Notes: generated from the sequence alone by a model not told the origin. A stretch of 64,000 nt of DNA from an uncultured Planctomycetia bacterium (GCA_964421015.1 CAYQUS010000005.1:10063-74062); one strand, 5' to 3'; numbered from the stretch's first letter, positions 11,860 to 49,400 are shown. Numbers and translations: made by a program.

Positions 11860-12702
11860 ATGCACAAAATAGTTTTCAAAAAACAGCTTAATCCCGAGAT
11901 ATGTCTTGTTGAATTCGAGGCCGGGGATCTTGCGGCCGCGGCTAAAGCCGGACAGTTCGTCATACTGCGCGTGGATGAGAAGGGAGAAAGGTTCCCTCTT
12001 ACAATATACGATTTTAACGTTACCAAGGGCACGGTTACGGTTGTTTGCCAGGCGGTGGGTGTAAGCACAAAGAAGCTTTGCGCTCTTAACCAGGGAGAAA
12101 GCATTCTTGATGTCGCCGGGCCTCTTGGCCACGCTACGGCCACGGAAAATATAGGCAAGGTTATCTGTATAGGCGGAGGTGTGGGTACCGCTGAGGCTTT
12201 TCCTATAGCGCGCGCGATGAAAGAGGCGGGCAACGACGTGACGGTCATAATAGGGGCCCGCAATTCGGGTCTTGTCATATGCGAAAAAGAAATAAGGGAG
12301 TTCTGCGATAAGGTGCATGTTACAACAGACGACGGTTCGTACGGAAGGAAGGGTTTTGTCACGGATGTCCTGAGCGAGCTCATAAAAGCCTCTAGGTATG
12401 ATCTGGTTTTCGCCATAGGCCCTGTTCCCATGATGAAAAGGGTCGCGGATGTTACAAGAGGCGAGAACATAAAGACAATGGTGTCGCTTAATTCCATAAT
12501 GATAGACGGTACAGGCATGTGCGGGGGATGCCGCCTCAAATATGACGGCAAACCAAGTTTTGCCTGTGTGGACGGGCCTGAATTTGACGCGCATCTGGTG
12601 GATTTCGACGACCTTATGAAACGGGGATCGAGATATAAAGACAAAGAAAAAAGGGCCAACGAGCATTACGGCGAAAAATGCAGGATAGGTCTGGGAAAAT
12701 AA
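11860..12702 (+). CDS. NfnA/SudB-like ferredoxin-NADP+ reductase subunit (PyrK-like FAD/[2Fe-2S] protein)
   Basis: 280 aa. Has a PyrK/FNR-like fold and a C-terminal Cys cluster CGGCRLKYDGKPSFAC. It sits directly 5' of a GltD-like subunit, which is the NfnAB/SudAB arrangement. Confidence 0.7.
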   Translation: MHKIVFKKQLNPEICLVEFEAGDLAAAAKAGQFVILRVDEKGERFPLTIYDFNVTKGTVTVVCQAVGVSTKKLCALNQGESILDVAGPLGHATATENIGKVICIGGGVGTAEAFPIARAMKEAGNDVTVIIGARNSGLVICEKEIREFCDKVHVTTDDGSYGRKGFVTDVLSELIKASRYDLVFAIGPVPMMKRVADVTRGENIKTMVSLNSIMIDGTGMCGGCRLKYDGKPSFACVDGPEFDAHLVDFDDLMKRGSRYKDKEKRANEHYGEKCRIGLGK

Positions 12703-15777: not shown

Positions 15778-15787
15778 GTAGGCTATA

Positions 15788-15880
15788 TATCCGGGGAGGG
15801 CGTGTGGCGCTCTGAGAGTTCCGATCGAGAAGCGGATTACCCGAGTAACCTGATCTGGATAATGCCAGCGTAGGGAGAGT
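15788..15880 (+). promoter_or_regulatory. TPP (THI-box) riboswitch
   Basis: Conserved CTGAGA, and ACCCGAGTAACCTGATCTGGATAATGCCAGCGTAGGGA matching the THI-element core (ACC...GAACCTGATCTGGATAATGCCAGCGTAGGGA). Lies 5' of thiE. Confidence 0.85.
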
Positions 15881-15892
15881 GAAGATATAAAA

Positions 15893-15925
15893 CCTCATGC
15901 GCTGCATGGGGTTTTTTGTTTTCGG
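15893..15925 (+). terminator. Riboswitch attenuator terminator
   Basis: CCTCATGC...GCATGGGG stem then TTTTTTGTTTT, positioned between the aptamer and thiE. Confidence 0.65.
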
Positions 15926-32764: not shown

Positions 32765-32793
32765 TTGACAAATGAGATAAAAATGGTATCATT
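32765..32793 (+). promoter_or_regulatory. Promoter with an operator-like palindrome upstream of the rubredoxin operon
   Basis: TTGACA (32765-32770), a 17-nt spacer, then ATCATT. AATGAGAT...GGTATCATT closely matches the Rrf2-gene promoter at 43195. Confidence 0.5.
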
Positions 32794-33027
32794 ATGTCAT
32801 CTGTCGAAAAGTTCTAAAAGAAAAACCACAAAGGAGGCGGCATGAAAGTCACTGTAAGATACATGCTTCGTCCAGTGGCCCATTGTAAAGAGGGCTGCTG
32901 TACAAGGTCCCGGGTAAGACGGTAAACTGCCTCTGGTGTCCGCCAGGGCCGGTGTAGAAATAACGGCGCCGGTCCCGGCGGCATCAAGAAAAATAAAATT
33001 TTTAAAAAACAGCTCAGGAGGGGAATA

Positions 33028-33165
33028 ATGGATAAATATGTATGTCTGGTTTGCGGTTATGTTTACGATCCGGCGGAAAATGATGGGGTGTCCTTTCAGG
33101 ACCTGCCCGAAGATTGGGTATGCCCGGAATGCGGAGTGGGAAAAGACCAGTTCGAGAAGGCGTGA
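33028..33165 (+). CDS. rub: Rubredoxin (45 aa; not in the ORF track)
   Basis: Translation [45 protein letters not shown] has the CxxCG...CPxCG rubredoxin knuckles. A GGAGGGG RBS lies upstream. Confidence 0.85.
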
Positions 33166-33237
33166 GAAGAGATAGAAAATAGAAGGTAGAAAGGAGAAAG
33201 GTTTAGGTTGAGGTTAAGGTTGAGGGGGAGGTAAAGT

Positions 33238-33744
33238 ATGATAAGCGACAAGATGGTAAAGGGGATTACAAGGCAAATAAACCGCGAAATATATTCCGGT
33301 TATTTTTATCTGGCCATGGCGTCTTTTGCCCAGGACGCGGGGCTTTCGGGCGTGGCTAACTGGTTCAACGTACAGCTTCAGGAAGAGATGAGCCACGCTA
33401 AAAAGTTTTACGACTATCTCCAGCAGCGGAATGTCAGGGTAAAACTTGATGCTATAGAGGCTCCGCCGCAGGAATTTTCTTCGGTGACGGATCTTTTTAA
33501 GCAGACTTTGGAACATGAGAAAAAAGTAACGGCCATGATAACGGATCTTGTGAATATGGCCATAGAGGAGAAGGACAGGGCCACGGAAATAATGCTTCAG
33601 TGGTTCGTTACCGAGCAGGTAGAGGAAGAAGCTAACGCTTCGGATATACTGCAGAAGCTGAAGGTCTTCGGGGAAAAAGGTGACGCCCTTCTTATGATAG
33701 ACAGGGACCTGTCGCAGAGGGTATTCACCCCTCCCGCGGCGTGA
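33238..33744 (+). CDS. ftn: Bacterial non-heme ferritin
   Basis: Ferroxidase-centre residues (E...EExH...) in a ferritin-like four-helix pattern. 168 aa. Confidence 0.8.
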   Translation: MISDKMVKGITRQINREIYSGYFYLAMASFAQDAGLSGVANWFNVQLQEEMSHAKKFYDYLQQRNVRVKLDAIEAPPQEFSSVTDLFKQTLEHEKKVTAMITDLVNMAIEEKDRATEIMLQWFVTEQVEEEANASDILQKLKVFGEKGDALLMIDRDLSQRVFTPPAA

Positions 33745-33762
33745 GATACGGAGAATAAAAAC

Positions 33763-34929
33763 ATGAAACCCGTAAGGATAAAAGAAGACATATACTGGGT
33801 GGGTGGCATAGACTGGGACCTCAGGAACTTTCACGGGTATTCCACTGGAAGAGGGTCGACTTACAATTCATACCTTATTCTCGACGAGAAGAAGGTACTG
33901 GTCGATACCGTAAAAGTGCATCTTTTCCCGGAGATGGTAGAGAGGGTCTCGGGGGTAGCGGATATATCGGGACTGGACTATATCGTTTCGAGCCATACCG
34001 AGATGGACCATTCTGGAAGTCTTCCTGAGCTCATGAAAATGTGCCCTGACGCCGTAATAATAACGTCTCCCAACGGGGAAAAGGCGCTTAGGAAACATTA
34101 TACGCACAACTGGAAAACAAAAGTTGTTAACACTGGTGACGAGCTGAAAATAGGCAGAAGAACGTTAAAATTCGTTCTTATGCCCATGGTACACTGGCCG
34201 GATTCCATGGCTACCTATGTGCCGGAAGAGAAACTTCTTCTTCCCAACGACGCTTTCGGGCAGCATATAGCTTCGGTTGAAAGGTTCGATTCGGAAGTGG
34301 GGCTTGATATCCTTACTGGGGAGGCCGCTAAATATTACGCTAATATTGTTCTCCCGTACGGGGCGCAGGTAACGAAGGTCCTGGAGACTGTCTCAAAGCT
34401 GGATGTGGACATGATAGCTCCGAGTCACGGAATAATTTGGGAGAAACACATATCCCGCATAAAAGAACTTTACGCTGCCTGGGCCTCCAATATTACAAAG
34501 GAAAAGGCGGTAGTGGTGTATGACACGATGTGGCATTCCACCGAGGCAATGGCGAAGGCGATATCCGAAGGGTTCGCTCGTGAGGCGATAAAGGCCGTTC
34601 CCATGAACCTGGAAACGAACCATATTTCCGACATCATGACCGAAATATTGGACTCGAAATACATCTGCGCGGGTTCTCCGACACTGAATAACGGTCTCTT
34701 GCCTTCGGCGGCGGCTTTTCTTACGTACATGAAGGGCCTCGCTCCTAAAGGAAGAAAGGCGCTAGCGTTCGGGTCTTACGGATGGGGAGGCCAGAGCGTA
34801 GATCAGATAGATGAGATATTTAAAAACTGCGGGTTCGAGACTTTCGATAAAATAAGGACGCAATGGGTACCCTCTAAAAGCGAGCTTGAAGATATAACTT
34901 CCCGGGTAGCCGGCTGGGTACGCAAGTAA
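33763..34929 (+). CDS. fprA: Flavodiiron protein (rubredoxin:oxygen/NO oxidoreductase, FprA/ROO)
   Basis: N-terminal metallo-beta-lactamase-like diiron domain (HTEMDHSGS) followed by a C-terminal flavodoxin domain. Confidence 0.85.
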   Translation: MKPVRIKEDIYWVGGIDWDLRNFHGYSTGRGSTYNSYLILDEKKVLVDTVKVHLFPEMVERVSGVADISGLDYIVSSHTEMDHSGSLPELMKMCPDAVIITSPNGEKALRKHYTHNWKTKVVNTGDELKIGRRTLKFVLMPMVHWPDSMATYVPEEKLLLPNDAFGQHIASVERFDSEVGLDILTGEAAKYYANIVLPYGAQVTKVLETVSKLDVDMIAPSHGIIWEKHISRIKELYAAWASNITKEKAVVVYDTMWHSTEAMAKAISEGFAREAIKAVPMNLETNHISDIMTEILDSKYICAGSPTLNNGLLPSAAAFLTYMKGLAPKGRKALAFGSYGWGGQSVDQIDEIFKNCGFETFDKIRTQWVPSKSELEDITSRVAGWVRK

Positions 34930-34941
34930 AGGAGGAAGGAA

Positions 34942-35319
34942 ATGACAAGATTAAGACAGATCTACAGATGTAACGTATGCGGCAACGTGGTGGAAATTTT
35001 GCATGAGGGCGCTCCCGATCTTCATTGCTGCGGCGAGGCGATGTCCAGGCTCGATGAAAAATCTCAGGATACCGGGCTGGAGAAACATGTGCCTGTTGTG
35101 GAGGAAAATACCGCGGGTGTTCTTGTGAAGGTGGGAAGCGTCGAGCATCCGATGGAGGAAAAGCACTATATCAAATTCATCGAGGTGCTTACCGCTGACA
35201 AAGTGCTTCGAGCGGAACTGAAACCCGGGATGAAACCACAGGCTGTATTTCCCGTAAAAAAGAGCGAAATTGTCCTTGTAAGGGAGTTTTGCAACATACA
35301 CATGCTTTGGAAGGCCTGA
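34942..35319 (+). CDS. dfx: Desulfoferrodoxin (superoxide reductase, 2Fe-SOR)
   Basis: CNVCGN...CCG desulforedoxin domain plus KHVPV...EEKHYI...C..H SOR centre. Near-collinear with Desulfovibrio Dfx. Confidence 0.9.
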   Translation: MTRLRQIYRCNVCGNVVEILHEGAPDLHCCGEAMSRLDEKSQDTGLEKHVPVVEENTAGVLVKVGSVEHPMEEKHYIKFIEVLTADKVLRAELKPGMKPQAVFPVKKSEIVLVREFCNIHMLWKA

Positions 35320-35360
35320 GACAGGATATTTTAATTAAAAACCGACGAAAGGAGAAAGAG

Positions 35361-35936
35361 ATGGCTAGCGTAAAAGGTACAAAAACCGAAAAGAACCTTC
35401 TGGCGGCTTTTGCCGGAGAGTCGCAGGCGCGCAACAGGTATACCTATTTCGCGGGTGTGGCTAAAAAAGCCGGGTACGAACAAATAGCGGCTGTTTTTCT
35501 TGAGACCGCGGACAATGAAAAGGAACATGCCAAGATGTTCTTCAAGCACCTGGAAGGAGGAGAGGTCGAGATAACCGCTAGCTATCCTGCCGGGAAGATA
35601 GGCGATACCGCGGCGAATCTGGAGGCTGCGGCTGACGGAGAGAAGATGGAGTGGACGTCGTTGTACAAGGATTTCGAGACTACCGCCAGAGCCGAGGGTT
35701 TTGACAATATAGCCGAAACTTTCAAAGAAATAGCCGAGGTGGAGGAAGAGCACGAGAAACGGTACAGGGCTCTTTTAAAAAACGTAAAAACCGGCAAGGT
35801 ATTTTCCAGGGAATCCGCCGTTAAATGGCACTGCCGTAACTGCGGGTATGTGCACGAGGGCAAAGAAGCTCCCAAAGTTTGTCCGGCGTGCAAGCATCCC
35901 CAGGCCCATTACGAGATCCTGGCGGAAAATTATTAA
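35361..35936 (+). CDS. rbr: Rubrerythrin
   Basis: Diiron ExxH motifs and a C-terminal rubredoxin-like CRNCG...CPACK domain. Starts at ATG 35361 after a GGAGAAAGAG RBS; the track ORF begins further upstream at 35289. Confidence 0.9.
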   Translation: MASVKGTKTEKNLLAAFAGESQARNRYTYFAGVAKKAGYEQIAAVFLETADNEKEHAKMFFKHLEGGEVEITASYPAGKIGDTAANLEAAADGEKMEWTSLYKDFETTARAEGFDNIAETFKEIAEVEEEHEKRYRALLKNVKTGKVFSRESAVKWHCRNCGYVHEGKEAPKVCPACKHPQAHYEILAENY

Positions 35937-35978
35937 TCTCAGCTGCCTGAGGCGCTTTCCAGGAGAAAGGCGGGAAAT

Positions 35979-36461
35979 ATGGCTAAAAGGTTTTCGGCTT
36001 GCGAGATAATAGAAATAGGGATACAGATAGAGGAGAACGGCAGGGACTTTTACAAAAGTCTCGCGGCTGTGGCGCGGGGAACAAAGGCTGAAAAGGTCCT
36101 GCTGGGCCTGGCCTCGGCCGAAGAAGATCACATAAAGGTGTTCAGGGAGGTCTTTACAGGTTCATGCGCGTATGATCCCGAGGGAGCTTACCCGGAAGAG
36201 TACTTTTCCTACATGAACAGTCTCGCTTCAGAATATGTTTTTACGAGGAAGGGAGCGGGGGAGAAGGCTGCTTCGGGGTTAACGACCTACGAGCAGGGGC
36301 TGGATCTGGGTATATCTTTCGAGAAAGACTCCATCCTTTTCTACGAGGAAATGAAAAAGTTCGTGGCTGCCTCGGAAAGACGAAAAATAGACATCCTTAT
36401 AGAGAACGAGAAAAAACATCTCAGCCAGCTTGTACAGATGAAGGAGGACGCTAAAAAATGA
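35979..36461 (+). CDS. Ferritin-like/rubrerythrin-family diiron protein (no rubredoxin domain)
   Basis: Ferritin-like helix pattern with EED/H motifs (EEDHIKVF...EKKHL). Confidence 0.55.
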   Translation: MAKRFSACEIIEIGIQIEENGRDFYKSLAAVARGTKAEKVLLGLASAEEDHIKVFREVFTGSCAYDPEGAYPEEYFSYMNSLASEYVFTRKGAGEKAASGLTTYEQGLDLGISFEKDSILFYEEMKKFVAASERRKIDILIENEKKHLSQLVQMKEDAKK

Positions 36462-36691
36462 AGAATGTGATAATCTATTCTACACCTACATGCCCATACT
36501 GCATAAAGGCCAAGAAATTCCTCGAGGAAAAGGGAATTGAGTATGACGAAAAGGACGTTTCCTCGGATACGGAAGCGGCCGACGAAGCGGTAGAAAAATC
36601 CGGGCAGATGGGCGTGCCTGTCCTGGATATAGAAGGGGAGATAATAGTAGGGTTCGACAGGGCCGCGATATCAGAGGCTCTGGGAATATAG
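36458..36691 (+). CDS. grx: Glutaredoxin
   Basis: CPYC active site and thioredoxin-fold length (77 aa). Confidence 0.85.
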   Translation: MKNVIIYSTPTCPYCIKAKKFLEEKGIEYDEKDVSSDTEAADEAVEKSGQMGVPVLDIEGEIIVGFDRAAISEALGI

Positions 36692-36706
36692 GGAGCCGCG
36701 CATCAG

Positions 36707-37627
36707 GTGGATACACTGTATGATCTCATAATAGCCGGGGCCGGGCCTGCCGGAATAACAGCCAGCGTGTATGCCGCGCGAAAAAGGATGTCGCTCAGTG
36801 TGCTTACCGGTGACATAGGGGGGCAGACGGTATGGAGCGGTGATATAGAGAACTATACCGGCTATCAGTTCATAAGCGGGGTGGATCTCGCCGGTAAATT
36901 AGAGGAACATATAAAGCAGTATTCCATAGAGGTCAGGGAGGGTGAAACCGTAACCGAGGTGCGTAAAGAGGGCAGCAAAATACATACTTTTACTTCAAAG
37001 GGGGAGTATGTATCCAAAACCCTTATAATCGCTTCCGGTAAAAGGTCCAGGGAGCTCGGTGTCCCGGGGGAAAAGGAATTCAGATCAAGGGGACTTGCGT
37101 ATTGCGCCACATGCGACGGTCCCCTTTTTGCCGGCAAGGACGTAGCCGTGATAGGAGGGGGTAACTCCGCTCTGGAAGCGGCAATGCAGCTTATCAGGAT
37201 AGCAAAAAAAGTTTACATCGTTAATCTCGCGGAAACCCTTACCGGAGACGCCATACTTATAGAAAAGATCGAGCGATCGGGTCTTGTAACGCTGATCAAT
37301 GGCGCCAGCGTAACGGCTGTCAAAGGCGGAAGATTCGTGGAGTCCATAGATATCGCCGGGCGCGGCAGAACGGAAACACTTTCGGTACAAGGTGTTTTTG
37401 TGGAGATAGGCCTTATCCCTAATACCGATTTTAAAAGCGATATTGAGCTTAACTCCAAGGGGGAGATAAAGGTAGACAGCGGTAACCGGACAAACATACC
37501 AGGGATATTCGCCGCCGGGGATGTTACGGATGTTCCCGAAAAGCAGATCATAATAGCCGCCGGAGAGGGCGCGAAAGCGGCTCTGAGCGCGTTCAACCAC
37601 ATAGCAAGGTCGAAGGAATGGCAGTAA
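36707..37627 (+). CDS. trxB: Thioredoxin reductase
   Basis: GAGPAG FAD motif, CATC redox-active disulfide, GGGNSA NADPH motif. Confidence 0.9.
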   Translation: MDTLYDLIIAGAGPAGITASVYAARKRMSLSVLTGDIGGQTVWSGDIENYTGYQFISGVDLAGKLEEHIKQYSIEVREGETVTEVRKEGSKIHTFTSKGEYVSKTLIIASGKRSRELGVPGEKEFRSRGLAYCATCDGPLFAGKDVAVIGGGNSALEAAMQLIRIAKKVYIVNLAETLTGDAILIEKIERSGLVTLINGASVTAVKGGRFVESIDIAGRGRTETLSVQGVFVEIGLIPNTDFKSDIELNSKGEIKVDSGNRTNIPGIFAAGDVTDVPEKQIIIAAGEGAKAALSAFNHIARSKEWQ

Positions 37628-38295
37628 AAAAAGAGGAGAAAAGCCCCGCGGGATCCGAATACAGTGTTTCCGCCCTCGTGAAAGAGCACTCAAAAAGGAA
37701 GACCGCCATAAGGCGGAGACTGGATGATTTCCGTAAAGTGTGGGGCCTCCCAGACAGGAAAATATTCGCGGAACTGTGTTTTTGCATATGTACCCCGCAG
37801 TCAAAAGCGGTTTACTGCGATGAGGCTGTAAGAGGCCTGGAAAGAAGCGGTGTTCTTTTTACTGGAGAAGAGAATGATATCCGCCGGGGCCTGGTAAGAG
37901 TGAGGTTTCCCAATAATAAATCCAGGTTCATAAGGGAAGCGAGAGATACGTTTACTTCTCGCGGGCGTATAGAGATAAAAAAACACATAGATGTTGCCGA
38001 CATAACAGGTACGAGAGAACGGCTTGTGAATAAAGTAAAGGGTATAGGCTATAAGGAAGCCAGCCACTTTCTGAGGAATATAGGGCACGGGTCCGATATA
38101 GCTATACTTGACGTTCACATTATAAAGAACATGATAAGGTACGGCCTTATCGAAGATAAACCATCGTGCATATCGAGGGGATGTTATATGGATATGGAAG
38201 AAAAACTCCGAGCTTTTTCCAAAAAAACCGCCATCCCCATGGATGAGATGGACATTCTTTTCTGGTCCATGGAAACGGGGGTAATATTCAAATAA
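37618..38295 (+). CDS. ogg: 8-oxoguanine DNA glycosylase/AP lyase, Ogg2-type (HhH-GPD)
   Basis: FAELCFCICTPQS resembles Ogg2 FEELVFCILTANSS, and GIGYKEASHFLRNIGH...ILDVHI resembles the HhH-GPD motif. Confidence 0.65.
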   Translation: MAVKKEEKSPAGSEYSVSALVKEHSKRKTAIRRRLDDFRKVWGLPDRKIFAELCFCICTPQSKAVYCDEAVRGLERSGVLFTGEENDIRRGLVRVRFPNNKSRFIREARDTFTSRGRIEIKKHIDVADITGTRERLVNKVKGIGYKEASHFLRNIGHGSDIAILDVHIIKNMIRYGLIEDKPSCISRGCYMDMEEKLRAFSKKTAIPMDEMDILFWSMETGVIFK

Positions 38296-38313
38296 CTACC
38301 CGGAGGGGGCAAG

Positions 38314-39369
38314 GTGACGGACGTTCTTATCGGGATATTCAGGGCGGCGTATGACCTTTTCGGCAGTATGGCGCCGTATCTTCTTTTTGGGTATTTCTTC
38401 GCCGGGATCTTGCACGTTTTTATACGACCGGGGGCCATTTCGGCGCATCTGGGAACAAACAGCTCGGCTTCGGTGATAAAGGCCGCGTTATTCGGGGTTC
38501 CTCTGCCTCTTTGCTCCTGCGCCGTTATTCCCGCCGCTCTTTCTCTGAGAAAGGAGGGGGCCTCTAAGGGCGCGGTACTGTCATTCCTTATATCCACCCC
38601 TACCACAGGGATAGATTCCATACTTGCCACATATTCCCTTTTGGGCTTATTTTTTACTGTTTACAGAGTAGCAGCTTCTTTTATAACAGGGGTCTTATCC
38701 GGTTTTCTGGCCAACATAATGCTGCCCGACGTAAAGGACGCGCCTTCTGCCGATGTATGTTCCCGGTGTCACAGCGATAGAGAAATGCCTTCGGAGGGGG
38801 TCTACGGACGTATCCGGAGAGTTTTTACTTACGCTTATGGGGATCTTCTAAAGGATAGCGGCCCGTCCTTAATTGTAGGTATATTGCTGGCGGGCGTTAT
38901 AACTTTTCTGATCCCGCCGGAGATCGTGGAGACGCACCTGGGTTACGGCATAGCGCCGATGCTGATAATGCTCGCGGTAGGACTGCCTATGTATGTGTGC
39001 GCCACGGCTTCTATACCCATAGCCGCGGCTCTCATGATGAAGGGACTTTCTCCCGGAGCGGCCTTTGTTTTTCTTGTCGCCGGTCCGGCGACAAATATGC
39101 TTACGATGTCGGTGGTCGCTAAAAGCCTGGGTAAAAGAGCTCTTTTTATATACCTTTTTTCTATAACGGTCTCAAGTATAGGTATGGGAACGATACTTAA
39201 CTATTTCTGGAAAGGACTGGACCTGAACTACGGGATCTCCCATATCCATCAGCAGAAAGAAATGATACCGGAATGGGCGGTACTTATTTCCAGCGTAACG
39301 CTCGGGATCCTTATCTTCAGCGACGTTTTATTGCTTTTTAGGCGGAAATACTTATCCTCAAAGAACTGA
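38314..39369 (+). CDS. Predicted permease (COG0701/DUF318-type, CxC motifs)
   Basis: Multi-TM hydrophobic profile with a CSCAVIP motif typical of this permease family. Confidence 0.6.
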   Translation: MTDVLIGIFRAAYDLFGSMAPYLLFGYFFAGILHVFIRPGAISAHLGTNSSASVIKAALFGVPLPLCSCAVIPAALSLRKEGASKGAVLSFLISTPTTGIDSILATYSLLGLFFTVYRVAASFITGVLSGFLANIMLPDVKDAPSADVCSRCHSDREMPSEGVYGRIRRVFTYAYGDLLKDSGPSLIVGILLAGVITFLIPPEIVETHLGYGIAPMLIMLAVGLPMYVCATASIPIAAALMMKGLSPGAAFVFLVAGPATNMLTMSVVAKSLGKRALFIYLFSITVSSIGMGTILNYFWKGLDLNYGISHIHQQKEMIPEWAVLISSVTLGILIFSDVLLLFRRKYLSSKN

Positions 39370-39380
39370 AAGGAGTCAGC

Positions 39381-40109
39381 ATGCAGGATATAACCCTGGG
39401 AGTGGCGTTCATCGCCGGCATTCTCTCTTTTCTCTCTCCGTGTGTTCTGCCACTTGTGCCGGGGTACATATCTTTTGTTTCGGGAGTTTCATTCGAGGAG
39501 CTCAAAGACCGTTCAGGCGGAAGCAAAGTCATGTGGCGTTCTGTCATGATGTCGGTATTCTTCGTCACGGGGTTTTCGATAGTTTTTATACTTATGGGGG
39601 CGACGGCCACGTCTTTGGGGCAGGCGCTGGCGAGGTATATCCACGTTTTTACGCGCGTGGCCGGGGTAGTGGTCGTGGCGCTCGGCCTTCATCTTTCTGG
39701 AATACTGAGGATTAGCTTCCTCGAATATCAGAAAAAGATAGATGTGTCTCCCTCTAAGAAAGGGGCTTTTGGCGCTCTTTTGGTAGGATTTGCTTTCGCC
39801 TTCGGTTGGACACCGTGTATAGGACCCCTTCTCGGCGGAATACTTGCCGTAGCGGCTACGGAAAGCACCGTGACAAGGGGAATAACCCTTCTTTCGGCGT
39901 ATTCGCTGGGGCTTGCGATACCGTTCGTCGCCACGGCTTTTGCAATAAGTTCCTTTATGAAGTTCATGCAGAAATACAGAAGTTTCATCAAGTGGGGGGA
40001 AGTGACAGCAGGGGTTTTTCTTATAGCGGTGGGGGTGCTGATATTTTTCGACAAATTAGGTGTCTTGGCCTACGCCTTGCAGGATCTTTTGCAGTTGGAC
40101 AAGGTTTAG
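39381..40109 (+). CDS. ccdA: Cytochrome c-type biogenesis/thiol-disulfide transporter CcdA (DsbD core)
   Basis: LSPCVLPLVPGY and TPCIGP motifs. Confidence 0.85.
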   Translation: MQDITLGVAFIAGILSFLSPCVLPLVPGYISFVSGVSFEELKDRSGGSKVMWRSVMMSVFFVTGFSIVFILMGATATSLGQALARYIHVFTRVAGVVVVALGLHLSGILRISFLEYQKKIDVSPSKKGAFGALLVGFAFAFGWTPCIGPLLGGILAVAATESTVTRGITLLSAYSLGLAIPFVATAFAISSFMKFMQKYRSFIKWGEVTAGVFLIAVGVLIFFDKLGVLAYALQDLLQLDKV

Positions 40110-40132
40110 GTTTTAAAACAAGGAGGTCATAC

Positions 40133-40660
40133 GTGCGCTCATTATTGCAAAGGTCTGTGCTGGGTTCGGTGTTACTGGCGGTATCTTTGTTCGCTCTGGC
40201 ATCGTGCGGAAACACAACCTCGGCCAAAGGGTCTCTCGGCCCGGCGGCGGATTTTACTTTGAAGGACGAAACAGGCGAGGACTACAATTTTTCGGAAAAC
40301 ACCGAAGGCAAGGTGGTCATCCTGAACTTCTGGGCCAAAAGATGTCCGGCTTGCAAGGTCGAGATCCCGAATCTGGTCGAGATATACGGCGAATACGCCG
40401 ATTCCGGTCTTGAGGTGATAGGAGTGGATGTGGACGCAAGCGGAGTGGCCGCGATGAAGGCCGCCAGCTCCCAGTACGGGATAGATTATCCGCTACTCAG
40501 CGGAACTTCAAGAGAGATAGGGCGGATCGTATCGAGCTATGGTTCTTTCAGGTTCATACCGACCACCTACATAATAGACAGGGAAGGCAATATTACGGAA
40601 AAACTCAGCGGTCCAAAAGGAAAAGCTTACCTGGAGGGCGCGGTAAAGAAGCTGTTATGA
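40133..40660 (+). CDS. TlpA/ResA-like thioredoxin-fold thiol-disulfide oxidoreductase lipoprotein
   Basis: GTG start 8 nt after an AGGAGG RBS. Lipobox LASCG, then WAKRCPAC (CxxC). The track ORF at 39806 overlaps ccdA and has no in-frame Met. Confidence 0.7.
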   Translation: MRSLLQRSVLGSVLLAVSLFALASCGNTTSAKGSLGPAADFTLKDETGEDYNFSENTEGKVVILNFWAKRCPACKVEIPNLVEIYGEYADSGLEVIGVDVDASGVAAMKAASSQYGIDYPLLSGTSREIGRIVSSYGSFRFIPTTYIIDREGNITEKLSGPKGKAYLEGAVKKLL

Positions 40661-41562
40661 CACGCATCGCCACGCTGTTCAAGCTTACACGGATCAATTT
40701 CGTTCCCGCGAGCGTTCTGGCTTTTTTTATGGGTTCGGCGCTGGCTTTCAGAGAGGGGTATGCCGTGTCCCCTTCAAGGTTCTTCGCGGCCATGATTGGC
40801 GTAGCCGCGGGGCATCTGGCGGCGAATACGTTGAACAACTATTGCGATCATGCATCGGGAGCGGATTCCCTTGAAACCCAAACGACGCCTTTTTTCGGTG
40901 GTACTAAGGTCATCTGTTCCGAGGAGGCGTCGCCGGCTGCGGCTCTTTTAACGGCGGCTATTCTGGTCTTTATGGCTTTTATTTCGGTCTGGGCCGTTTT
41001 CGTCATGACCGCCGACGCGGTCTTTATAATTCTTGCCGTCACGGCGGCTTTTTTAGGCGCAGAGTATACGGCCCGGCCGCTTCGATTCTCCTACAGAGGA
41101 ATGGGAGAGGCTGTTATATTTTTTCTTTTCGGCCCCATGCTGGTGTCTGGAAGTTTTTACCTTTTTTCGGGTTTTTTCTCTATCGGGAGTTTCCTGCTGT
41201 CTCTTGTTCCCGGGGGGCTTATTTTCAGCGTTATTGTGCTGAACGAAATACCCGACGCGGATACCGACAAAAAGGCCGGAAAGAACAATCTTGTTGTTAT
41301 CGCCGGAAAAGAGCTCGCTGTTTTCTTTTATGTCTCCGGCGCCGTGGTGTCGGCGCTTTCTCTGGCGGTATCTGTTCTTAAAGGTATTCTTCCGCCTTTT
41401 GCCATGGCCATTCTTTTGCCGTACGCCGCTATTTTCGCGGTATTCGCAAAAATGTCGGAGCGTATTCCGGGGGCTGAGGGAATGTCTCGTTTCTCTGGAA
41501 TAACCGTGGCCACACACGCTCTTGTGACATTGCTCGTGACCGCGGTTTTAATTGTATCCTAG
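40657..41562 (+). CDS. UbiA-family prenyltransferase (MenA-like)
   Basis: Polytopic membrane protein with NNYCDHASGAD (NDxxDxxxD) and a second D-rich motif (EIPDADTD). Confidence 0.7.
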   Translation: MTRIATLFKLTRINFVPASVLAFFMGSALAFREGYAVSPSRFFAAMIGVAAGHLAANTLNNYCDHASGADSLETQTTPFFGGTKVICSEEASPAAALLTAAILVFMAFISVWAVFVMTADAVFIILAVTAAFLGAEYTARPLRFSYRGMGEAVIFFLFGPMLVSGSFYLFSGFFSIGSFLLSLVPGGLIFSVIVLNEIPDADTDKKAGKNNLVVIAGKELAVFFYVSGAVVSALSLAVSVLKGILPPFAMAILLPYAAIFAVFAKMSERIPGAEGMSRFSGITVATHALVTLLVTAVLIVS

Positions 41563-41583
41563 CTGTCTTTTCCCGGAGGGATA

Positions 41584-42750
41584 ATGGCGAAAAAGAAAAT
41601 CATCATAGCCGGGTGCGGCTTTGCCGGTTCCAACGCACTGAAACGTTTTGGAAAACTCAGAAAACTGTGGTCCAGGGATTTTGAAGTTTTAGTTTTTGAC
41701 CCCAAGGAAAACCTGGAATTTCTGCCGATGCTTCCGGATGTCCTGAGCGGTAAGGTATCTCCCGGAGCGATAAGCTATCCCATAAAAGAGCTTTGCCGAA
41801 AATACGGATGCGTTTTTGTGAGGTCCGCTGTTACATCAATAGATCCGGTTTCGAGAAAGGTGTGCTCGGGCGAAGGCGTTTTTGAGTACGAGTATCTTCT
41901 TTTGTCGCCGGGGTCACAGACGAATTTTTACGGCAACGAAAAGATGGAAAAGGCCTGTTTCAAAATGGACTCTGTGTCCGACGCCTTGTCGGTCAGAAAA
42001 GAAATACTTTCAAGATCTTCTTCAGGCAGGGAGGTCAGGGTCCTGGTGATAGGAGGAGGATACACAGGGATAGAAACCGCCTCCGCTTGTGTTTCTCTTT
42101 TAAAGAAGACGGGAACAAGGCATAAAGTGATGATATCCGAAATGTCGCGTGATATTCTTCCGTCTCTTCCGGAATGGATAAGAGTATTCGCGCGGGGGGA
42201 ACTTGAAAAAATGTCTGTCGAAGTATTTCCGGAGGAGTCCCTTAAGGATATCATTTCAGGGAAGGCCATAATGGCTTCCGGCAGAGAGATCGATGATGTT
42301 ATGCCAGTATGGACGGCCGGGGTAAGAACGCCAATGTTCCTGGAAAGTTTCAGTTCTCCGAAGTTCCGTACGAGGTTGAACGTAGACAGTAAGATGTGCC
42401 TTGAGACCTTTTCAGAAGGTAAGATCTTCGCCTCCGGCGACGCCGCGGCTTTTTACCCGTATCCGGGAGGCGAACCCGCGCGGATGTCGGTCGTCTCGGC
42501 GATAAATCAGGGAAAGGCCGCGGCTGAAGGCATATTAAGACTTGCCGCTTCGAGGCCCGCTCCGGCCTACAGGCATTACGATCCCGGATATGTTGTTCCG
42601 TTTTATAACGGAAAAGCCCCGGGTATGTCGATGGGCATGAAAATTCCGCCTGTTATCGGTTATTTTCTGCACTACTTTATGTGTGTTTACAGAGCGCCTT
42701 TTCGTGGGAAAATAAGGATAATTAGGGACATTATTTCAAAGAGGAGGTAA
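41584..42750 (+). CDS. NDH-2-like FAD-dependent pyridine nucleotide-disulfide oxidoreductase
   Basis: IIIAGCGFAG and VLVIGGGYTGIE Rossmann motifs. Confidence 0.6.
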   Translation: MAKKKIIIAGCGFAGSNALKRFGKLRKLWSRDFEVLVFDPKENLEFLPMLPDVLSGKVSPGAISYPIKELCRKYGCVFVRSAVTSIDPVSRKVCSGEGVFEYEYLLLSPGSQTNFYGNEKMEKACFKMDSVSDALSVRKEILSRSSSGREVRVLVIGGGYTGIETASACVSLLKKTGTRHKVMISEMSRDILPSLPEWIRVFARGELEKMSVEVFPEESLKDIISGKAIMASGREIDDVMPVWTAGVRTPMFLESFSSPKFRTRLNVDSKMCLETFSEGKIFASGDAAAFYPYPGGEPARMSVVSAINQGKAAAEGILRLAASRPAPAYRHYDPGYVVPFYNGKAPGMSMGMKIPPVIGYFLHYFMCVYRAPFRGKIRIIRDIISKRR

Positions 42751-42752
42751 TT

Positions 42753-43163
42753 ATGAACAGTGAAAGATCGATCGATACGGCTTTAATGATCATTCGTTTG
42801 ACTTTAGGGGGGATAATGGCCGCCCACGGGGCGCAGAAGGTATTAGGAGTTTTCGGAGGAAGCGGTATAGAACCCTTCGCCGGCATGATAAAGGCGATGG
42901 GATTTACCCCGCCGCTTGTTTGGGCATGGGCGGCGGCTTTAAGCGAACTTGCCGGAGGCATACTGTTGGCTCTTGGAATAATACCGCGTTTCAGCGCCGC
43001 GATGATAGGGATTGTCATGGCTGTTGCCATAATTAAGGTGCACGGAGCCAACGGTTTTTTTATGATGAAAGGGGGCTACGAGTATCAGCTTCTCATTTTG
43101 GCGTCGTGCGTGGCTCTTGTTATTTCCGGAGCAGGTAAATATTCATTATTCAACAAGTTTTAA
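42753..43163 (+). CDS. DoxX-family membrane protein
   Basis: 136 aa, four predicted TM helices and a DoxX-like pattern. Confidence 0.7.
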   Translation: MNSERSIDTALMIIRLTLGGIMAAHGAQKVLGVFGGSGIEPFAGMIKAMGFTPPLVWAWAAALSELAGGILLALGIIPRFSAAMIGIVMAVAIIKVHGANGFFMMKGGYEYQLLILASCVALVISGAGKYSLFNKF

Positions 43164-43194
43164 GTTTTAATCGGAAAAGAGAGATATTTTTCTC

Positions 43195-43223
43195 TTGACA
43201 AATGATACTCGGGTGGTATCATT
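43195..43223 (+). promoter_or_regulatory. Promoter with a perfect palindromic operator upstream of the Rrf2 regulator
   Basis: TTGACA (43195-43200), a 17-nt spacer, then ATCATT. Palindrome AATGATAC-N6-GTATCATT overlaps the spacer and -10 element. Confidence 0.6.
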
Positions 43224-43239
43224 AATAAAAGGAAAAAAC

Positions 43240-44547: not shown

Positions 44548-46212
44548 ATGTTTTGCAGGCAGTGTGAGCAGACGGCTATGGGCAAGGGGTGCGACAAACA
44601 AGCTGGGGTATGCGGTAAGACCGATGAGACGGCGGTGCTACAGGACCTCTTAATACACAGCCTTAAAGGGATAGCGATCTATGGTAACATGGCAAGACCC
44701 CTGGGCGTTAAGGACCCGGAAATAGACCGTTTCATGATGGAAGGTCTTTTTAGCACGATAACGAATGTCGATTTCGATCCGGAAAGGCTTAAGGGACTTT
44801 TATCTGCGTCTTACAAAATGAAAGCGAGGATAAAGGATTCTTTCGAGAAAGCTTACAAAGAGAAAAATAAAAAAGACTTTTCAGGAACTCTTCACTCTTC
44901 GGCGTCATGGGAACCCGCCTCTTCAACGGAAGGATTGATAGAGCAAGGCAGGAAAAATGGTATTTTGTCCCCCGAGGGGATATCCGAAGACGTGAGGAGC
45001 CTCAGGGAGATAATTCTGTATGGTCTTAAAGGCATAGCGGCTTACGCGGACCATGCCGCCGTCCTCGGGAGAACCGAGGAAGAAGTAAGCGCTTTCTTTT
45101 ATGAGGCGCTTGCGGCGATAACAGACGATAAATTATCAGCTGACGCTCTTACCGGTCTTGTGTTAAAAGCCGGCAGTGTGAACCTTAAATGCATGGAGAT
45201 GCTGGACGCGGCGAATACCGGAAGATTCGGGCATCCGGTTCCCACTAAGGTCTTTCTTGGGGCCAAAAAGGGACCGGCTATACTCATAACCGGTCATGAC
45301 TTGGCCGATATGGAGGATCTTCTAGAGCAGACTAAAGACAAGGGAATAAACGTGTACACGCATGGGGAAATGCTGCCAGCCCACGGTTATCCGGGTCTTA
45401 AGAAGTATCCCAATTTCGCGGGGCATTTCGGAGGAGCCTGGCAGGATCAGCAGAAAGAGTTCCCGTCTTTTCCCGGAGCCATGCTTTTTACCACGAACTG
45501 TATACAGAAACCCCTGGATTCTTACAAAGACAGAGTTTTTACAACAGGGCTTGTGGCCTGGCCCGGAGTGGTCCATATCTCGGGAAAGCCCGGCAAGAAA
45601 GATTTTACGCCTGTTATTAAAAAAGCTCTCGAAGCGGGAGGATATAAAGAAAATGTCCCCGGTAAGGAAATAACCGTGGGATTCGCTCACAACACGGTAT
45701 TGAGCGTAGCCGACAAAGTGGTGGATCTTGTAAAAAGAGGTAAAATAAAAAGGTTTTTTCTCATCGGAGGGTGCGATGGGGCAAAATCCGGAAGGAACTA
45801 TTACACAGAGTTCGCCGAGAAAGTCCCTAAGGACTGTGTGATCATAACTCTGGCCTGCGGGAAGTTCAGGTTCAACAGGCTTGAGTTCGGGGATATAGAA
45901 GGAGTGCCTCGTCTTCTTGACTGCGGACAATGCAACGACGCTTTCTCGGCCATAAAGATAGCCTCGGCGCTTGCGGGAGTGTTCAATTGTTCCGTTAACG
46001 ACTTACCGCTTTCCATGATACTTTCATGGTACGAACAGAAAGCTGTGTGTATTTTGCTTACGCTTTTTTCACTCGGAATAAAAGGCATAAAACTTGGGCC
46101 GAGTTTGCCCGCATTCGTATCGCCTAATGTGCTTAAGATCCTTGTGGAAAAATTCAACATAAGCCCTATATCCACAGTGGACCAGGATCTTAAATCTGCT
46201 CTTGGGAACTAA
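44548..46212 (+). CDS. hcp: Hybrid-cluster protein / hydroxylamine reductase
   Basis: N-terminal MFCRQCEQTAMGKGC...GVCGK cubane cluster motif and Hcp-like length (554 aa). Confidence 0.9.
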   Translation: MFCRQCEQTAMGKGCDKQAGVCGKTDETAVLQDLLIHSLKGIAIYGNMARPLGVKDPEIDRFMMEGLFSTITNVDFDPERLKGLLSASYKMKARIKDSFEKAYKEKNKKDFSGTLHSSASWEPASSTEGLIEQGRKNGILSPEGISEDVRSLREIILYGLKGIAAYADHAAVLGRTEEEVSAFFYEALAAITDDKLSADALTGLVLKAGSVNLKCMEMLDAANTGRFGHPVPTKVFLGAKKGPAILITGHDLADMEDLLEQTKDKGINVYTHGEMLPAHGYPGLKKYPNFAGHFGGAWQDQQKEFPSFPGAMLFTTNCIQKPLDSYKDRVFTTGLVAWPGVVHISGKPGKKDFTPVIKKALEAGGYKENVPGKEITVGFAHNTVLSVADKVVDLVKRGKIKRFFLIGGCDGAKSGRNYYTEFAEKVPKDCVIITLACGKFRFNRLEFGDIEGVPRLLDCGQCNDAFSAIKIASALAGVFNCSVNDLPLSMILSWYEQKAVCILLTLFSLGIKGIKLGPSLPAFVSPNVLKILVEKFNISPISTVDQDLKSALGN

Positions 46213-46220
46213 CTTTTTTA

Positions 46221-46261
46221 CACATTGGTGCCAGGCACCACTGGTGCCTGGCACCAATGTG
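46221..46261. repeat. Perfect 20-bp-arm palindrome (GGTGCCAGGCACC family); likely also a terminator for hcp
   Basis: CACATTGGTGCCAGGCACCA c TGGTGCCTGGCACCAATGTG. Confidence 0.8.
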
Positions 46262-46294
46262 TAATGCTGTTAGGAGTATAAAATCACTTATTTC

Positions 46295-46474: not shown

Positions 46475-49400
46475 ATGGGATCTAGCAGAAAAATTCTCCG
46501 CAAGATATTCTCATTTCTACTGCTAATAACTTTTTCGTTACAAAATGTTTCTTCCGGCCAGGATATTTTTACAGATACTCTGGCCACCAGCCCGGTTTCT
46601 TCGGAAAAACCAGTTACAGAGGAATCTTTTCTTTTCAGTCAGGCGATACGCGGCGACATAAGAATGATGTCCGTTATTTACTCTGTTGCTCAGGCCTTTT
46701 TTGAGTCGGGGGAGAGTAAAGAAGGTCTTCTGAAAACTCTTTCCGGAAAATTTTTCTGGAACGATTCTTTCTTAAGAGGTCTAAACATAGATCTTGAGAA
46801 CATATCTATGGAGGATTACAGAAATGACGGTTTTTTGAGCATACCTTTTGTGTCTGAGGACGGTAGGCTCAGCGGAATAGTTGGCGTATGTCCGGTGACG
46901 TCCCGGGTGGTTTCCGCCAGGGATGATAAGAGCTGGGAGAGACTCGGCGAATACACTTTTTTTATTGAAAGCAGACCCAGGGGAACGGATATAACGTCAA
47001 GAGATATGCGCGGCCCGGCGGCTTTTTCTGAAACCAATCCCATACTGGAGGGGCTAATAGTTTCGGGAAAGGTGGTAGAGCTTTCCATGGACACAGAAAA
47101 CGGGGATTTTAAAGCCCACAGAGTAAAGTGGGTGGAGGACTATGTCCCGGGCGCCACTCCGGAAGACGTGTATAAAGGCTCTGAGATATCTGTCTCCCAG
47201 GTGCTGTCACGGTCCGAGAGGAAAGTTTTGCGCAGGTGGATGAGAGAGCATTCGGTGCGCGGGTCTCCGGTCAAGTTCAGGATAATACTGGGAGATCCCG
47301 CGATAGGGTGGTTCAGCGATATGGACCATTCTTACATAGCACATGCCGGGTTCAGGGATAATGCGGTCTACATGGGTTCTCTTCTCTTAAGGTATCTGCT
47401 CCGGGAGGAGTCATCCGGGGTAAGGTCGGAGATACTCGATAATGACGAGTTCAGGCACCTTAGCGGTCTGGATCACGGGACAGCCGAAGAGATAGAAAGA
47501 AGGCTTTCTCTTGTGAGCGAGGCCATGGAAAGGGAGAATTTGCAAAGAACAGGAGCGGCTATAGCTGAAGACGATGTAGATTTTATGGTCGCGGAGATGA
47601 AGTCGCTTCTTTCCTCGGGTGACACTTACGGGATACTGAACTTTCTGTCGGCGGTGAATGACGTAGCTCTCACAAGAGGTAAATATCCGGTTGAGAGCAC
47701 ATACCCCATAAAACACGCCGTAGCTCTTCTTTCTAAGAAAGAACAGGATCTGCTTATGGATATACTCACCGGAACGGTTTCGAGGTCCGAGGAATATCGC
47801 TACAAGATAGTGGTTGACGAGCTCATTTCTATGCTGGATGAGGACCAGGTGCTTCAGGAATGGATAAAGGTTTACGCCCCCAATCTTGAGGGCCGCTCCC
47901 TGTGGCAGATATCTCCGGAAATATGGCATGAGGCGGGTGGGCTTGCCAGGGTAATGCAGTACCACGGCGCCGGTATAAAGCATCTCATAGGACAGTCAGG
48001 AGTGAGGTTCCGGCATATAGAGCCCCATTATCAGAACAGGATAGATGCCCAGGGTAATCCCGGGAAGTTGGACTACACTGACGCAGCCCATATAACCCAT
48101 CCGATACAGGGAGAGCTTGAGGAAGTGGCAAGATATTCCGTGGAACTTAACGGCAAGGACGTCAATGTTATAGTAAGCCGAGGCGTTAACGACCTGGGGA
48201 TAGAAATATATCTCATACGTGACGAGGGAGGAGTTTACACACACTCGCTCTACAACTACAGGAATCCATGGGAAACAAGGACGGATCTGCCAACATGGGA
48301 GGAGTTTTCGGTTTTTTATTCAAAGGCTTCTCTTGAGCTGGTGAGAATAATAGAGGAAAGGGAAAAGACCGCGCTCGAGAACCTGCACAAAAAATGGAAA
48401 GCTCCTCTTCTTCATCTAAATGATTCCCAGACCGCCCTTGTAGCGGCTTTCCGTAAAATATACTATGACGAGGATCCGGTTCTTGGCAAGGCGATAGTGG
48501 CTTTTACCACACACACCTATGGTAATAGAAGGGATTATCCGCTTAACGAGGGTTATGGTGACAGGGTACTCAATTTTATGGGCATACCTGAAAAATACCG
48601 GGAGTTTTTCCGGCATATCAAGCCCGGGACGGGCTATGTTTACGACATGGCCTCGGCAGGGCTGCGAATGTCGGATTGGCAGGGAGCCGTATCTAGAGCG
48701 CATCGCGATGACGTGGAAGTTTACGATGAATGGATAAATCATCCGGAAGGTGAGGCTCTTGCGGAATATTACAGGGAAGTCGGAGGACGGTTCAACCTTG
48801 TGGGGGTTTCCAACGGAGACCTGAGATCCAAGACCATGGTATACTTTACCGAAAAGCTCAGGAAACTCTACGGCTCGGACGTGGATGTGGAAGACCTATC
48901 CCCGGAGCAGGTAGCGGAGGCCAAGAAACTGGCTAAAGCTGAACTCAGGGTTTCGGAAAATAAGAATTTCTACTCAAGCCGCGGTTCCGATGACAGGTCA
49001 GGACCTATGCTTGATCCTGATCAGATGGTGGTTTCATATTCAGGCAGGCTTGTGCCTGAAAAAGCCGGCAGATCCAGGGCTTTCACCGACAATAATATCG
49101 AGGAGATGGTAAAGAGCGGTATACAGGTGGTCATATACGGTAACGTTCAATCAAACAACCCAGCCAGCGACAAGCTCAGGGACGATCTAATAGCTTTGAC
49201 GGAAAGGCTAAAAGAAAAGAATTATGAAGGCAGGCTTGTTTTTGTTCCGAGATTCAGCCTGAACGACCAGAGAGCTCTTCTGGCTGCCAGCGACGTACAG
49301 GTGCAGGATTCGCATCCGGCCACAGAAGCCGCGGGTTTTACCGAGGCGGATATTTCGGCCTGCGGTGGCATAGAGGTGGGGACGAGAAGGACTGACAACG

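Follow-up and report, generated by a model that had tools for sequence, protein, structure and literature searches.

Two promoters in the 64-kb window analysed here (the window being the whole stretch of contig CAYQUS010000005.1 that was studied, 64,000 nucleotides) share an operator-like palindrome, one of them heading a stress operon that runs from rubredoxin to DoxX and the other heading rrf2, a ferredoxin gene and hcp, and the question raised by this locus is whether a single Rrf2-family repressor controls both, as a first-pass annotation of the same DNA had proposed. The palindrome is very probably the operator of the Rrf2-family regulator encoded behind the second promoter, judging by the company it keeps across genomes. 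By analogy with characterised members of the family, and with a probability of roughly 0.8, we read the whole circuit as an autoregulated iron-sulfur (Fe-S) Rrf2 repressor that would keep a regulon for defence against O2, reactive oxygen species (ROS) and NO off under anoxia. What the computation establishes is where the sites lie, how well they are conserved, that they go exclusively with this Rrf2 subfamily, and which genes the regulon contains. Near-identical and homologous proteins are labelled by their sources as coming from Candidatus Omnitrophota metagenome-assembled genomes (MAGs).

Both promoter strings quoted in the first-pass annotation, TTGACAAATGAGATAAAAATGGTATCATTA ahead of the rubredoxin operon (site A) and TTGACAAATGATACTCGGGTGGTATCATTA ahead of rrf2 (site B), occur exactly once in the window, on the plus strand and with 0 mismatches. 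The core of site B is the perfect 8-N7-8 palindrome AATGATAC/GTATCATT of 23 bp, spanning the spacer and the -10 box as had been described, and site A reads AATGAGAT-N7-GTATCATT, with the same right half and two mismatches in the left one. In the promoter scan both promoters show TTGACA, a 16-nt spacer and TATCAT with a TG-extended -10 (TTGACA-16-TGnTATCAT), matching 11 of the 12 sigma-70 consensus positions, the top of the region; the operator extends in both from the -35 box to the end of the -10 box. Allowing up to three mismatches to the palindrome, the two sites are the sole matches in 64 kb (0.16 expected), two matches being also reached in 1 of 100 shuffles of the window. A weight matrix trained solely on 29 orthologous sites from other genomes scored them at 24.5 and 22.7 bits, against 4.0 bits for the next best position and 13.9 for the best of 20 shuffles, and revealed no additional site above background in the 64-kb window. 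The consensus operator is A-ATGAYAC-N7-GTRTCAT-T, 23 bp long.

The comparison set comprised about 150 related loci (L numbers below). Among 36 genome loci fetched through alignment of Rrf2 orthologs, 28 carry altogether 29 copies of TTGACA-N1-2-ATGAYAC-N7-GTATCAT, on the coding strand and embedded in the promoter either of the rrf2 ortholog or of a ROS-defence operon containing it; the operator orthologous to site B is present in L002 and 27 other loci, and the site-bearing loci span Omnitrophota and Atribacterota/Caldatribacteriota. The half-sites of the 29 copies are near-invariant and hold most of the information, while the N7 centre is variable, and the distance from the -35 box to the palindrome is 1 nt in some lineages and 2 nt in others with the register between palindrome and -10 fixed. 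A -10 box of TATCAT goes with every copy of the palindrome, other promoters of the window having TATAAT or TACAAT, and the C in it that departs from the consensus is complementary to the G of ATGATAC; therefore, the constraint runs from the palindrome to the promoter. Five other TTGACA-type promoters in the window (at 2046, 46295, 60054, 62372 and 62657) have unrelated spacers and ordinary -10 boxes.

The opposite search direction agrees with this one. A metagenome scan by DNA pattern alone retrieved at least 120 loci, 114 of them evaluable for having enough downstream sequence, and among the matches listed an Rrf2 ortholog starts within 1.5 kb downstream in 97 of the 114, the median distance from the -35 box being 60 nt. 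Genes identifiable downstream in the other 17 encode rubredoxin, ferritin, desulfoferrodoxin (Dfx), rubrerythrin (Rbr), Hcp, ferredoxin, YHS-domain proteins, a PAS protein with MsrA-MsrB, or a Cu-type P-type ATPase with glutaredoxin (Grx) and thioredoxin reductase (TrxR), and a few of these loci lack any identifiable gene downstream. The enrichment near redox genes that had been put forward as a check was thus found in other genomes, ahead of the orthologous regulator and of O2/ROS/NO-defence genes, and the likeness of the promoters goes beyond their consensus: the left half mirrors the right, the C of the -10 box is required by the palindrome, the N7 is free and the -35 box shifts by 1 nt. 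Both results support the proposal that one Rrf2 repressor may couple the rubredoxin-to-DoxX operon with rrf2-ferredoxin-hcp.

In the loci fetched by Rrf2 homology the site always heads a transcription unit containing the rrf2 ortholog, usually as a single site ahead of one long unit that includes the regulator. Across the loci compared, units of this kind read site, micro-ORF (described below), in some cases rubredoxin (Rd), then ferritin, flavodiiron protein (FDP), Dfx, Rbr, a second Rbr (Rbr2), Grx, TrxR, Ogg and Rrf2 (L006, L007, L008, L010, L025, L047); or site, with or without micro-ORF, Rrf2, Fer4 and Hcp, then Dfx, Rd, FDP, Grx and TrxR (L114, L147, L154 and many others); or, in Atribacterota, site, Rrf2, ferritin or Dfx, FDP, Rbr and sometimes Hcp (L028, L035, L036, L062). 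In L004 and L034 rrf2 directly follows doxX with no promoter between them, from which the arrangement in the window can be understood as the long operon with an extra internal promoter-operator before rrf2. A class II (B12-type) ribonucleotide reductase (RNR) lies between operator plus micro-ORF and rrf2 in L011 (7641-9965) and L013 (7699-9981), which makes it a regulon member there; further lineage-specific members are YHS proteins (L017, L033) and nifS-nifU inside the operon (L026, L073). Operators are also found away from rrf2, in L063 and L127 (sites +115 and +644), L092 (site +814) and L038, followed by a PAS_10 protein with an MsrA-MsrB fusion, by a heavy-metal P-type ATPase and then Grx-TrxR, or by a YHS protein with micro-ORF and then archease-RtcB-SerRS. 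L030 (3750-9800) holds a second perfect operator, overlapping the start of another cluster (a glycosyltransferase, a dual-specificity-phosphatase-like protein, a pyridine-nucleotide disulfide oxidoreductase, a DedA-like membrane protein, a radical-SAM/methyltransferase fusion and a DUF2064-like protein). Tandem or duplicated operator copies occur in two loci: a partial repeat, GATGATACGAAAATAGTAT, stands just upstream of the full operator in L100 (about 540-600), and a second GATACTATCATAGTATC some 25 nt downstream of it in L139 (about 946-1010).

The regulator itself belongs to the Rrf2 superfamily (PF02082, 103 bits for a cut-off of 30; TIGR00738, 96.6 bits for a cut-off of 73.3), and the top 37 Protein Data Bank (PDB) matches of its AlphaFold2 (AF2) model (pLDDT 90) are all Rrf2 proteins, the best being RsrR, CymR, IscR and NsrR at 22-28% identity. 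The first-pass annotation had named NsrR, IscR and RsrR as typical regulators of this family, and the protein is none of these by the NCBIfam models: the superfamily model alone passes, and the scores are far below every equivalog cut-off tested, be it for NsrR (NF008240, 45.4 vs 182 bits), IscR (TIGR02010, 52.5 vs 207.6; NF008110, 36.7 vs 275), RirA (70.2 vs 193), the SUF regulator (63.6 vs 110.7), CymR (36.3 vs 195) or HypR (25.9 vs 180). By these profiles, the protein fits no characterised subfamily. The three cysteines that had been suggested as cluster ligands are present (C88, C99 and C105), but they do not form the canonical loop C-x5-6-C-x5-C, the first ligand position being occupied by His92. 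Of 121 family members all have C99 and C105, 12 have Cys at position 88, and 113 have His and the remaining 8 Cys at position 92; Arg at position 13 is invariant, and position 108 is Lys or Arg. HMMER aligned H92 with C92 of IscR and placed C99 and C105 one residue off its C98 and C104. Position 9, within the motif T-D-Y-A, is Asp in 120 of the 121, and we take it to be the equivalent of NsrR Asp8, given the NsrR N-terminus and the structural matches to 5n07 and 7b0c, so that the carboxylate ligand of NsrR has its counterpart here. The alternation of His and Cys is still compatible with an Fe-S cluster, and because the swap occurs exactly at the first ligand position and is joined by an Asp matching NsrR Asp8, it points, by analogy, to a predicted cluster with His92/Cys99/Cys105/Asp9 ligation.

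On this basis the circuit could operate as follows. Since the operator covers the spacer together with the -10 box of strong promoters, binding should repress, the Rrf2 dimer excluding RNA polymerase. Promoter B would drive rrf2-ferredoxin-hcp and so provide autoregulation, and promoter A a 10-kb operon from the micro-ORF through DoxX. By analogy with NsrR, IscR and RsrR, the cluster would be held by His92, Cys99 and Cys105 together with Asp9 from the other subunit; DNA binding under anoxia would be a property of the holo form, as in NsrR (PMC4432287), leaving the regulon off, and damage or oxidation of the cluster by O2, ROS or NO would abolish binding and derepress both operons. Derepression by oxidative or nitrosative stress is argued for by the gene content, which covers the reduction of superoxide, peroxide, O2 and NO, iron sequestration, thiol systems, and the repair of 8-oxoguanine and methionine sulfoxide. 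Several points weigh against this interpretation. Loci were gathered via the regulator or via the motif, which builds the association partly into the sampling; the scan covers 64 kb of the source genome, and the regulon seen is that part of it; and the organisms are uncultured MAGs. It is from regulon content alone that we infer the signal (O2, H2O2, NO or iron/Fe-S status), and the ligand set is non-canonical, making a cluster-free thiol switch possible. Site A lacks the left-half C7 that is invariant across all 29 genome sites, and might bind weakly or not at all. Finally, L005, a more distant relative, has no recognisable site at the operon head, apparently through loss, and its site before rrf2 has 3 mismatches; the circuit is thus not universal.

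It is rather unlikely that the Rrf2 protein binds the operator without sensing O2, ROS or NO through an Fe-S cluster, acting instead as a HypR/SaiR-like thiol-disulfide switch via C99/C105 or as an IscR/RirA-like sensor of iron or Fe-S supply. The missing first Cys, the presence of ferritin in the regulon, the nifS-nifU genes that some relatives have inside the operon and the window has directly upstream of site A, and the fact that RirA and the SUF regulator are the best sub-threshold NCBIfam matches would all fit such a sensor. His and Cys nevertheless alternate exactly at the first ligand position, C99, C105 and D9 match ligand positions of NsrR, and the regulon consists mainly of genes detoxifying O2, superoxide, peroxide and NO and repairing damage, not of genes for iron uptake or Fe-S assembly. 

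A further reading restricts regulation to rrf2-ferredoxin-hcp and sees in site A a decayed operator, the stress operon being served by a plain constitutive promoter. Besides the apparent loss of the head site in L005, the two left-half mismatches speak for it, and so does the weight-matrix score of site A, below those of all 29 training sites. This reading is unlikely in view of the operon heads of three relatives (L158, L160, L161), fetched via ferritin homologs (82-86% identical), which all read CTTGACAAATGAGAT-N7-GGTATCATTATA. The left half ATGAGAT, with a perfect right half, is therewith found in four genomes, the N7 centres being AGAAATG, GGAAATG and TAAGATG in the relatives vs AAAAATG in the window and the flanks having diverged; identity of ATGAGAT over divergent centres and flanks means that the asymmetric half-site itself is conserved, as under selection on the variant. 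Moreover, RsrR also binds sites with one recognisable half (PMC5015018). The first-pass annotation was right about the spacing and the right half at the rubredoxin promoter, and its 'partly conserved' left half is better described as a conserved variant than as decay. L158 and L002 are the same contig (JBAYES010000002.1), from the closest genome, whose Rrf2 is 76% identical to that of the window and which has the same two-site layout. Returning to the Rrf2 circuit, and going by this pattern of conservation, site A is probably a tuned, weaker operator that would release before the perfect autoregulatory site.

Rrf2 proteins have some 130-160 aa, with an N-terminal winged helix-turn-helix and a dimerisation helix, and bind inverted repeats of about 19-25 bp, often in their own promoters. 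Among known systems, the 23 bp of the present repeat match the length of full Rrf2 sites, such as the 23-bp 11-1-11 repeat of ScNsrR (PMC4432287) and the 11-3-11 sites of the autoregulated RsrR (PMC5015018). Size and promoter position of the operator are typical of the family and its sequence is new; searching the literature on Rrf2 with rubrerythrin, desulfoferrodoxin, Atribacteria or Omnitrophota, we did not find this subfamily, motif or regulon described. NsrR, the NO sensor with a [4Fe-4S] cluster of E. coli, B. subtilis and S. coelicolor, has in common with our protein the Rrf2 fold, the autoregulation as a repressor that is predicted here, a 23-bp repeat over the promoter, the N-terminal Asp, the outer half-site triplets ATG...CAT and, in enterobacteria, hcp in the regulon (PMC1274295). 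It differs in sequence (about 22-23% identity in the structural alignment), in having Cys where the first ligand position is His here, and in its consensus gATGyAT-N5-ATrCATc (PMC1274295), whose spacing and inner bases are not those of ATGAYAC-N7-GTRTCAT although both are 23 bp long; the regulon described here is moreover mainly one of O2/ROS defence, and hmp was not seen in it. RsrR, the redox-sensing [2Fe-2S] regulator of Streptomyces venezuelae, comes closest in structure (Foldseek E 2e-9, TM 0.77) and has the autoregulation and the mixed cluster ligation by His, carboxylate and two Cys that are predicted for our protein. Its ligands are Glu8, His12, Cys90 and Cys110 (structure 6hsd), whereas R13 replaces His12 in our protein and the His lies in the Cys loop; identity is 24%, the operator of RsrR has an 11-3-11 layout, and the RsrR regulon has to do with NAD(P)H metabolism. 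With IscR, a sensor of Fe-S status, the fold, one His in the ligation predicted here and the proximity of nifS-nifU to the regulon are shared, but IscR His107 corresponds to Lys108 and nifS-nifU lie upstream, not downstream, of the operator in the window; type 1 and type 2 IscR sites are both unlike the present operator. The functional analogue is PerR, the Fur-family peroxide repressor of clostridia and sulfate reducers, which in anaerobes represses rubrerythrin, desulfoferrodoxin, flavodiiron and rubredoxin genes until oxidative stress. Repression of such genes by PerR has been reported in C. difficile (PMC8546684). PerR is an unrelated protein that senses by metal-catalysed His oxidation and has another operator. 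Lastly, a 2026 preprint proposes, solely on gene neighbourhood, that an uncharacterised Lachnospiraceae Rrf2 protein, C0FN14, controls flavodiiron, rubrerythrin, thioredoxin and ribonucleotide reductase genes (PMC13404960). C0FN14 also has an Asp8, and its link to RNR is echoed by the class II RNR mentioned above; it keeps the three canonical Cys and comes from another phylum, and the preprint defines no operator for it.

Six genomes (L011, L012, L013, L016, L021, L024) encode, directly before Fer4-Hcp, a paralogous three-Cys Rrf2 protein with the arrangement C-x6-C-x5-C (CMFRKxxCxNRxxC), the spacing of the ligand positions in the His-type regulator. Its own promoter carries the palindrome ATACTA-N3-TAGTAT (L011, about 12560-12590), which differs from the main operator and so indicates cognate pairing of regulator and operator. 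As far as gene order goes, control of hcp shows itself to have moved between Rrf2 paralogs, and in those six genomes hcp is probably under the three-Cys protein rather than the His-type regulator. This pairing also bears on whether the palindrome could be a real operator bound by another regulator encoded elsewhere, for instance of the Fur/PerR or the CRP/FNR (HcpR) type, which we regard as very improbable. Fur/PerR boxes are of the 7-1-7 type. PerR controls rbr, dfx and fdp genes in clostridia, HcpR controls hcp in many anaerobes (PMC1274295), and each genome is seen in part; but this Rrf2 is the sole regulator gene consistently linked to the motif, the 7-N7-7 arrangement over 23 bp fits Rrf2 sites and not the HcpR motif wyTTGACnnnnGTCAArw (PMC1274295), and a paralog with a distinct palindrome is what cognate pairs lead one to expect. 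That the two promoters resemble each other merely through strong sigma-70 features (TTGACA, TGn, a TATAAT-like box), with no operator, is already contradicted by the data and next to negligible, because, although 13 of their 22 identical positions are consensus positions and both match 11 of 12, nine shared positions lie outside the consensus, the halves mirror each other, the non-consensus C accompanies the palindrome everywhere, the five other TTGACA promoters lack the motif, the palindrome is kept across two phyla around a varying centre, and, among the matches listed, the pattern alone retrieves rrf2 in most of the evaluable loci.

The gene content of the rubredoxin operon was as the first-pass annotation had it, except that rubredoxin is not its first cistron: a micro-ORF of 27 codons comes first. 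Fifty-three unique orthologous versions were found, all in Omnitrophota loci, 21-28 codons long, with a strong Shine-Dalgarno sequence and usually at a distance of 50-80 nt downstream from the operator; their consensus reads M-D-I-T-I-[KR]-Y-M-L-R-P-V-A-H-C-K-E-G-C-[SC], with the near-invariant peptide YMLRPVAHCKEGC. Information at codon positions 1, 2 and 3 amounts to 1.59, 1.74 and 0.71 bits, a pattern of coding constraint which argues that the micro-ORF is translated. The peptide has no Pfam or NCBIfam match. Possible roles are that of a regulatory leader or that of a small Cys/His peptide with metal or redox activity. In L045 (about 3069-4800) the micro-ORF lies between P-type ATPase and YHS-domain genes with no recognisable operator, and further YHS-micro-ORF pairs occur in L017, L033, L038 and L136, a neighbourhood that hints at a link to metals.

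Over the stop codon of the micro-ORF, which falls at differing places inside it, lies a 25-nt RNA motif; searched with its covariance model, each locus has a single copy, which in every case sits at the 3' end of the micro-ORF. Compensatory changes at three base pairs support a 5-bp helix, GGGCA/UGCCC, and the covariation observed was reached in none of 500 shuffles; this helix is thermodynamically weak and is not predicted by RNAalifold, whose sole proposal for the motif, a 3-bp helix GUC/GAC, hardly covaries. At gathering thresholds Rfam matched in the whole window a TPP riboswitch only, elsewhere than the leader, and a permissive scan of 32780-33040 gave chance-level matches; the leader is accordingly not a known RNA family. 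Selenocysteine at the in-frame UGA of the motif was considered and rejected, the codon alternating with AGA, CGA and GGA and not with Cys codons. Between micro-ORF and rubredoxin the window has a GC-rich hairpin, and hairpins of differing sequence and kept structure occupy the same place in L158 (about 2500-2545), L160 and L161; as to whether it is an intrinsic terminator, a strong hairpin is present in 15 of 42 instances, many without U-tract. Other candidate roles are attenuation, processing and stabilisation. It is tempting to speculate on a two-tier control of oxygen defence in Omnitrophota, possible though doubtful at present, in which a His-ligated Fe-S Rrf2 repressor, in place of PerR or OxyR, would form the first tier and an undescribed cis-acting leader of micro-ORF and RNA motif the second, where thiol, redox or metal state might be sensed by the Cys/His peptide as it emerges, or by the passage of translation over the motif, and the downstream genes tuned accordingly.

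The features of the block are collected in Table 1. The genes from 38314 to 43163 are separated by tight gaps or overlap, and keep the same order in L002, L004 and L034.

Table 1. Position of promoters, leader elements, genes and repeats of the Rrf2 block in the window
Feature	Position	Strand	Evidence or remarks
Promoter/operator A	32765-32794	+	-35 TTGACA 32765-32770; operator 32771-32793; extended -10 TGGTATCAT 32784-32792
Site A variant in L158, L160 and L161			CTTGACAAATGAGAT-N7-GGTATCATTA; comparison of operon heads
Micro-ORF, 27 codons	32842-32925	+	MKVTVRYMLRPVAHCKEGCCTRSRVRR followed by stop; strong Shine-Dalgarno; first cistron behind operator A; 53 orthologous instances
RNA motif, 25 nt	32907-32931	+	GUCCYGGGYAWGACNNUAAACUGCC; over micro-ORF stop codon; no codon periodicity
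GC-rich hairpin	32937-32985	+	Without clear U-tract
Rubredoxin, 45 aa	33028-33165	+	PF00301, E 2.8e-15; NCBIfam
Ferritin	33238-33744	+	PF00210, E 2.5e-40
Flavodiiron protein, O2/NO reductase type	33763-34929	+	ODP and Flavodoxin_1 domains; NCBIfam
Desulfoferrodoxin (superoxide reductase)	34942-35319	+	PF01880 and PF06397
Rubrerythrin	35361-35936	+	PF02915 and PF21349
Rubrerythrin-like protein	35979-36461	+	PF02915
Glutaredoxin	36458-36691	+	
Thioredoxin-reductase-like flavoprotein	36707-37627	+	
8-oxoguanine DNA glycosylase (Ogg)	37618-38295	+	PF22175, E 4.5e-50
ArsP-type permease	38314-39369	+	
DsbD_TM	39381-40109	+	
AhpC/TSA redoxin (peroxiredoxin-type)	40133-40660	+	
UbiA prenyltransferase	40657-41562	+	
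Pyr_redox_2 flavoprotein	41584-42750	+	
DoxX	42753-43163	+	
Promoter/operator B	43195-43224	+	-35 TTGACA; perfect palindrome 43201-43223; extended -10 TGGTATCAT
Rrf2-family regulator, 137 aa	43240-43653	+	PF02082, E 1.6e-29
4Fe-4S ferredoxin-domain protein, 286 aa	43650-44510	+	
Hybrid cluster protein Hcp	44548-46212	+	PF03063, E 1e-170; NCBIfam equivalog, 819 bits
Long perfect inverted repeat, directly after hcp	46221-46263	+	ACACATTGGTGCCAGGCACCA / TGGTGCCTGGCACCAATGTGT; sequence reading

The inverted repeat directly after hcp is likely the end of the second operon; its T-run precedes and does not follow it, and a shorter related string, GGTGACAGGCACCAGCGCC, lies near 30595. Between nifU and the head operator a Fer4_5-domain gene is found in L158 (1834-2292) and L160 (1992-2450), and is absent from this interval in the window and L161. 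The block formed by nifSU and the stress genes is flanked by two very large ORFs (22066-30441, 2791 aa; 46475-51844, 1789 aa), and the TPP riboswitch lies at 15782-15893 (RF00059, 65.7 bits).

To our knowledge, nothing is known of oxygen sensing in Omnitrophota and Atribacterota, which are abundant and almost entirely uncultured anaerobes. Our findings offer for them a testable circuit in which the regulator subfamily, its 23-bp operator and its regulon are defined, the latter comprising superoxide reductase, rubrerythrins, flavodiiron protein, Hcp, ferritin, thiol systems and the repair of DNA and protein, and the motif is ready for use in annotating the regulons of MAGs and in interpreting metatranscriptomes. 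The micro-ORF with its RNA motif is a new and sharply defined object for research on small proteins and leader peptides. That the operator at the operon head is asymmetric, and conserved as such, suggests that derepression is graded, and the His/Cys/Cys/Asp ligand set, if true, would add to the known ways in which Rrf2 proteins tune their Fe-S clusters.

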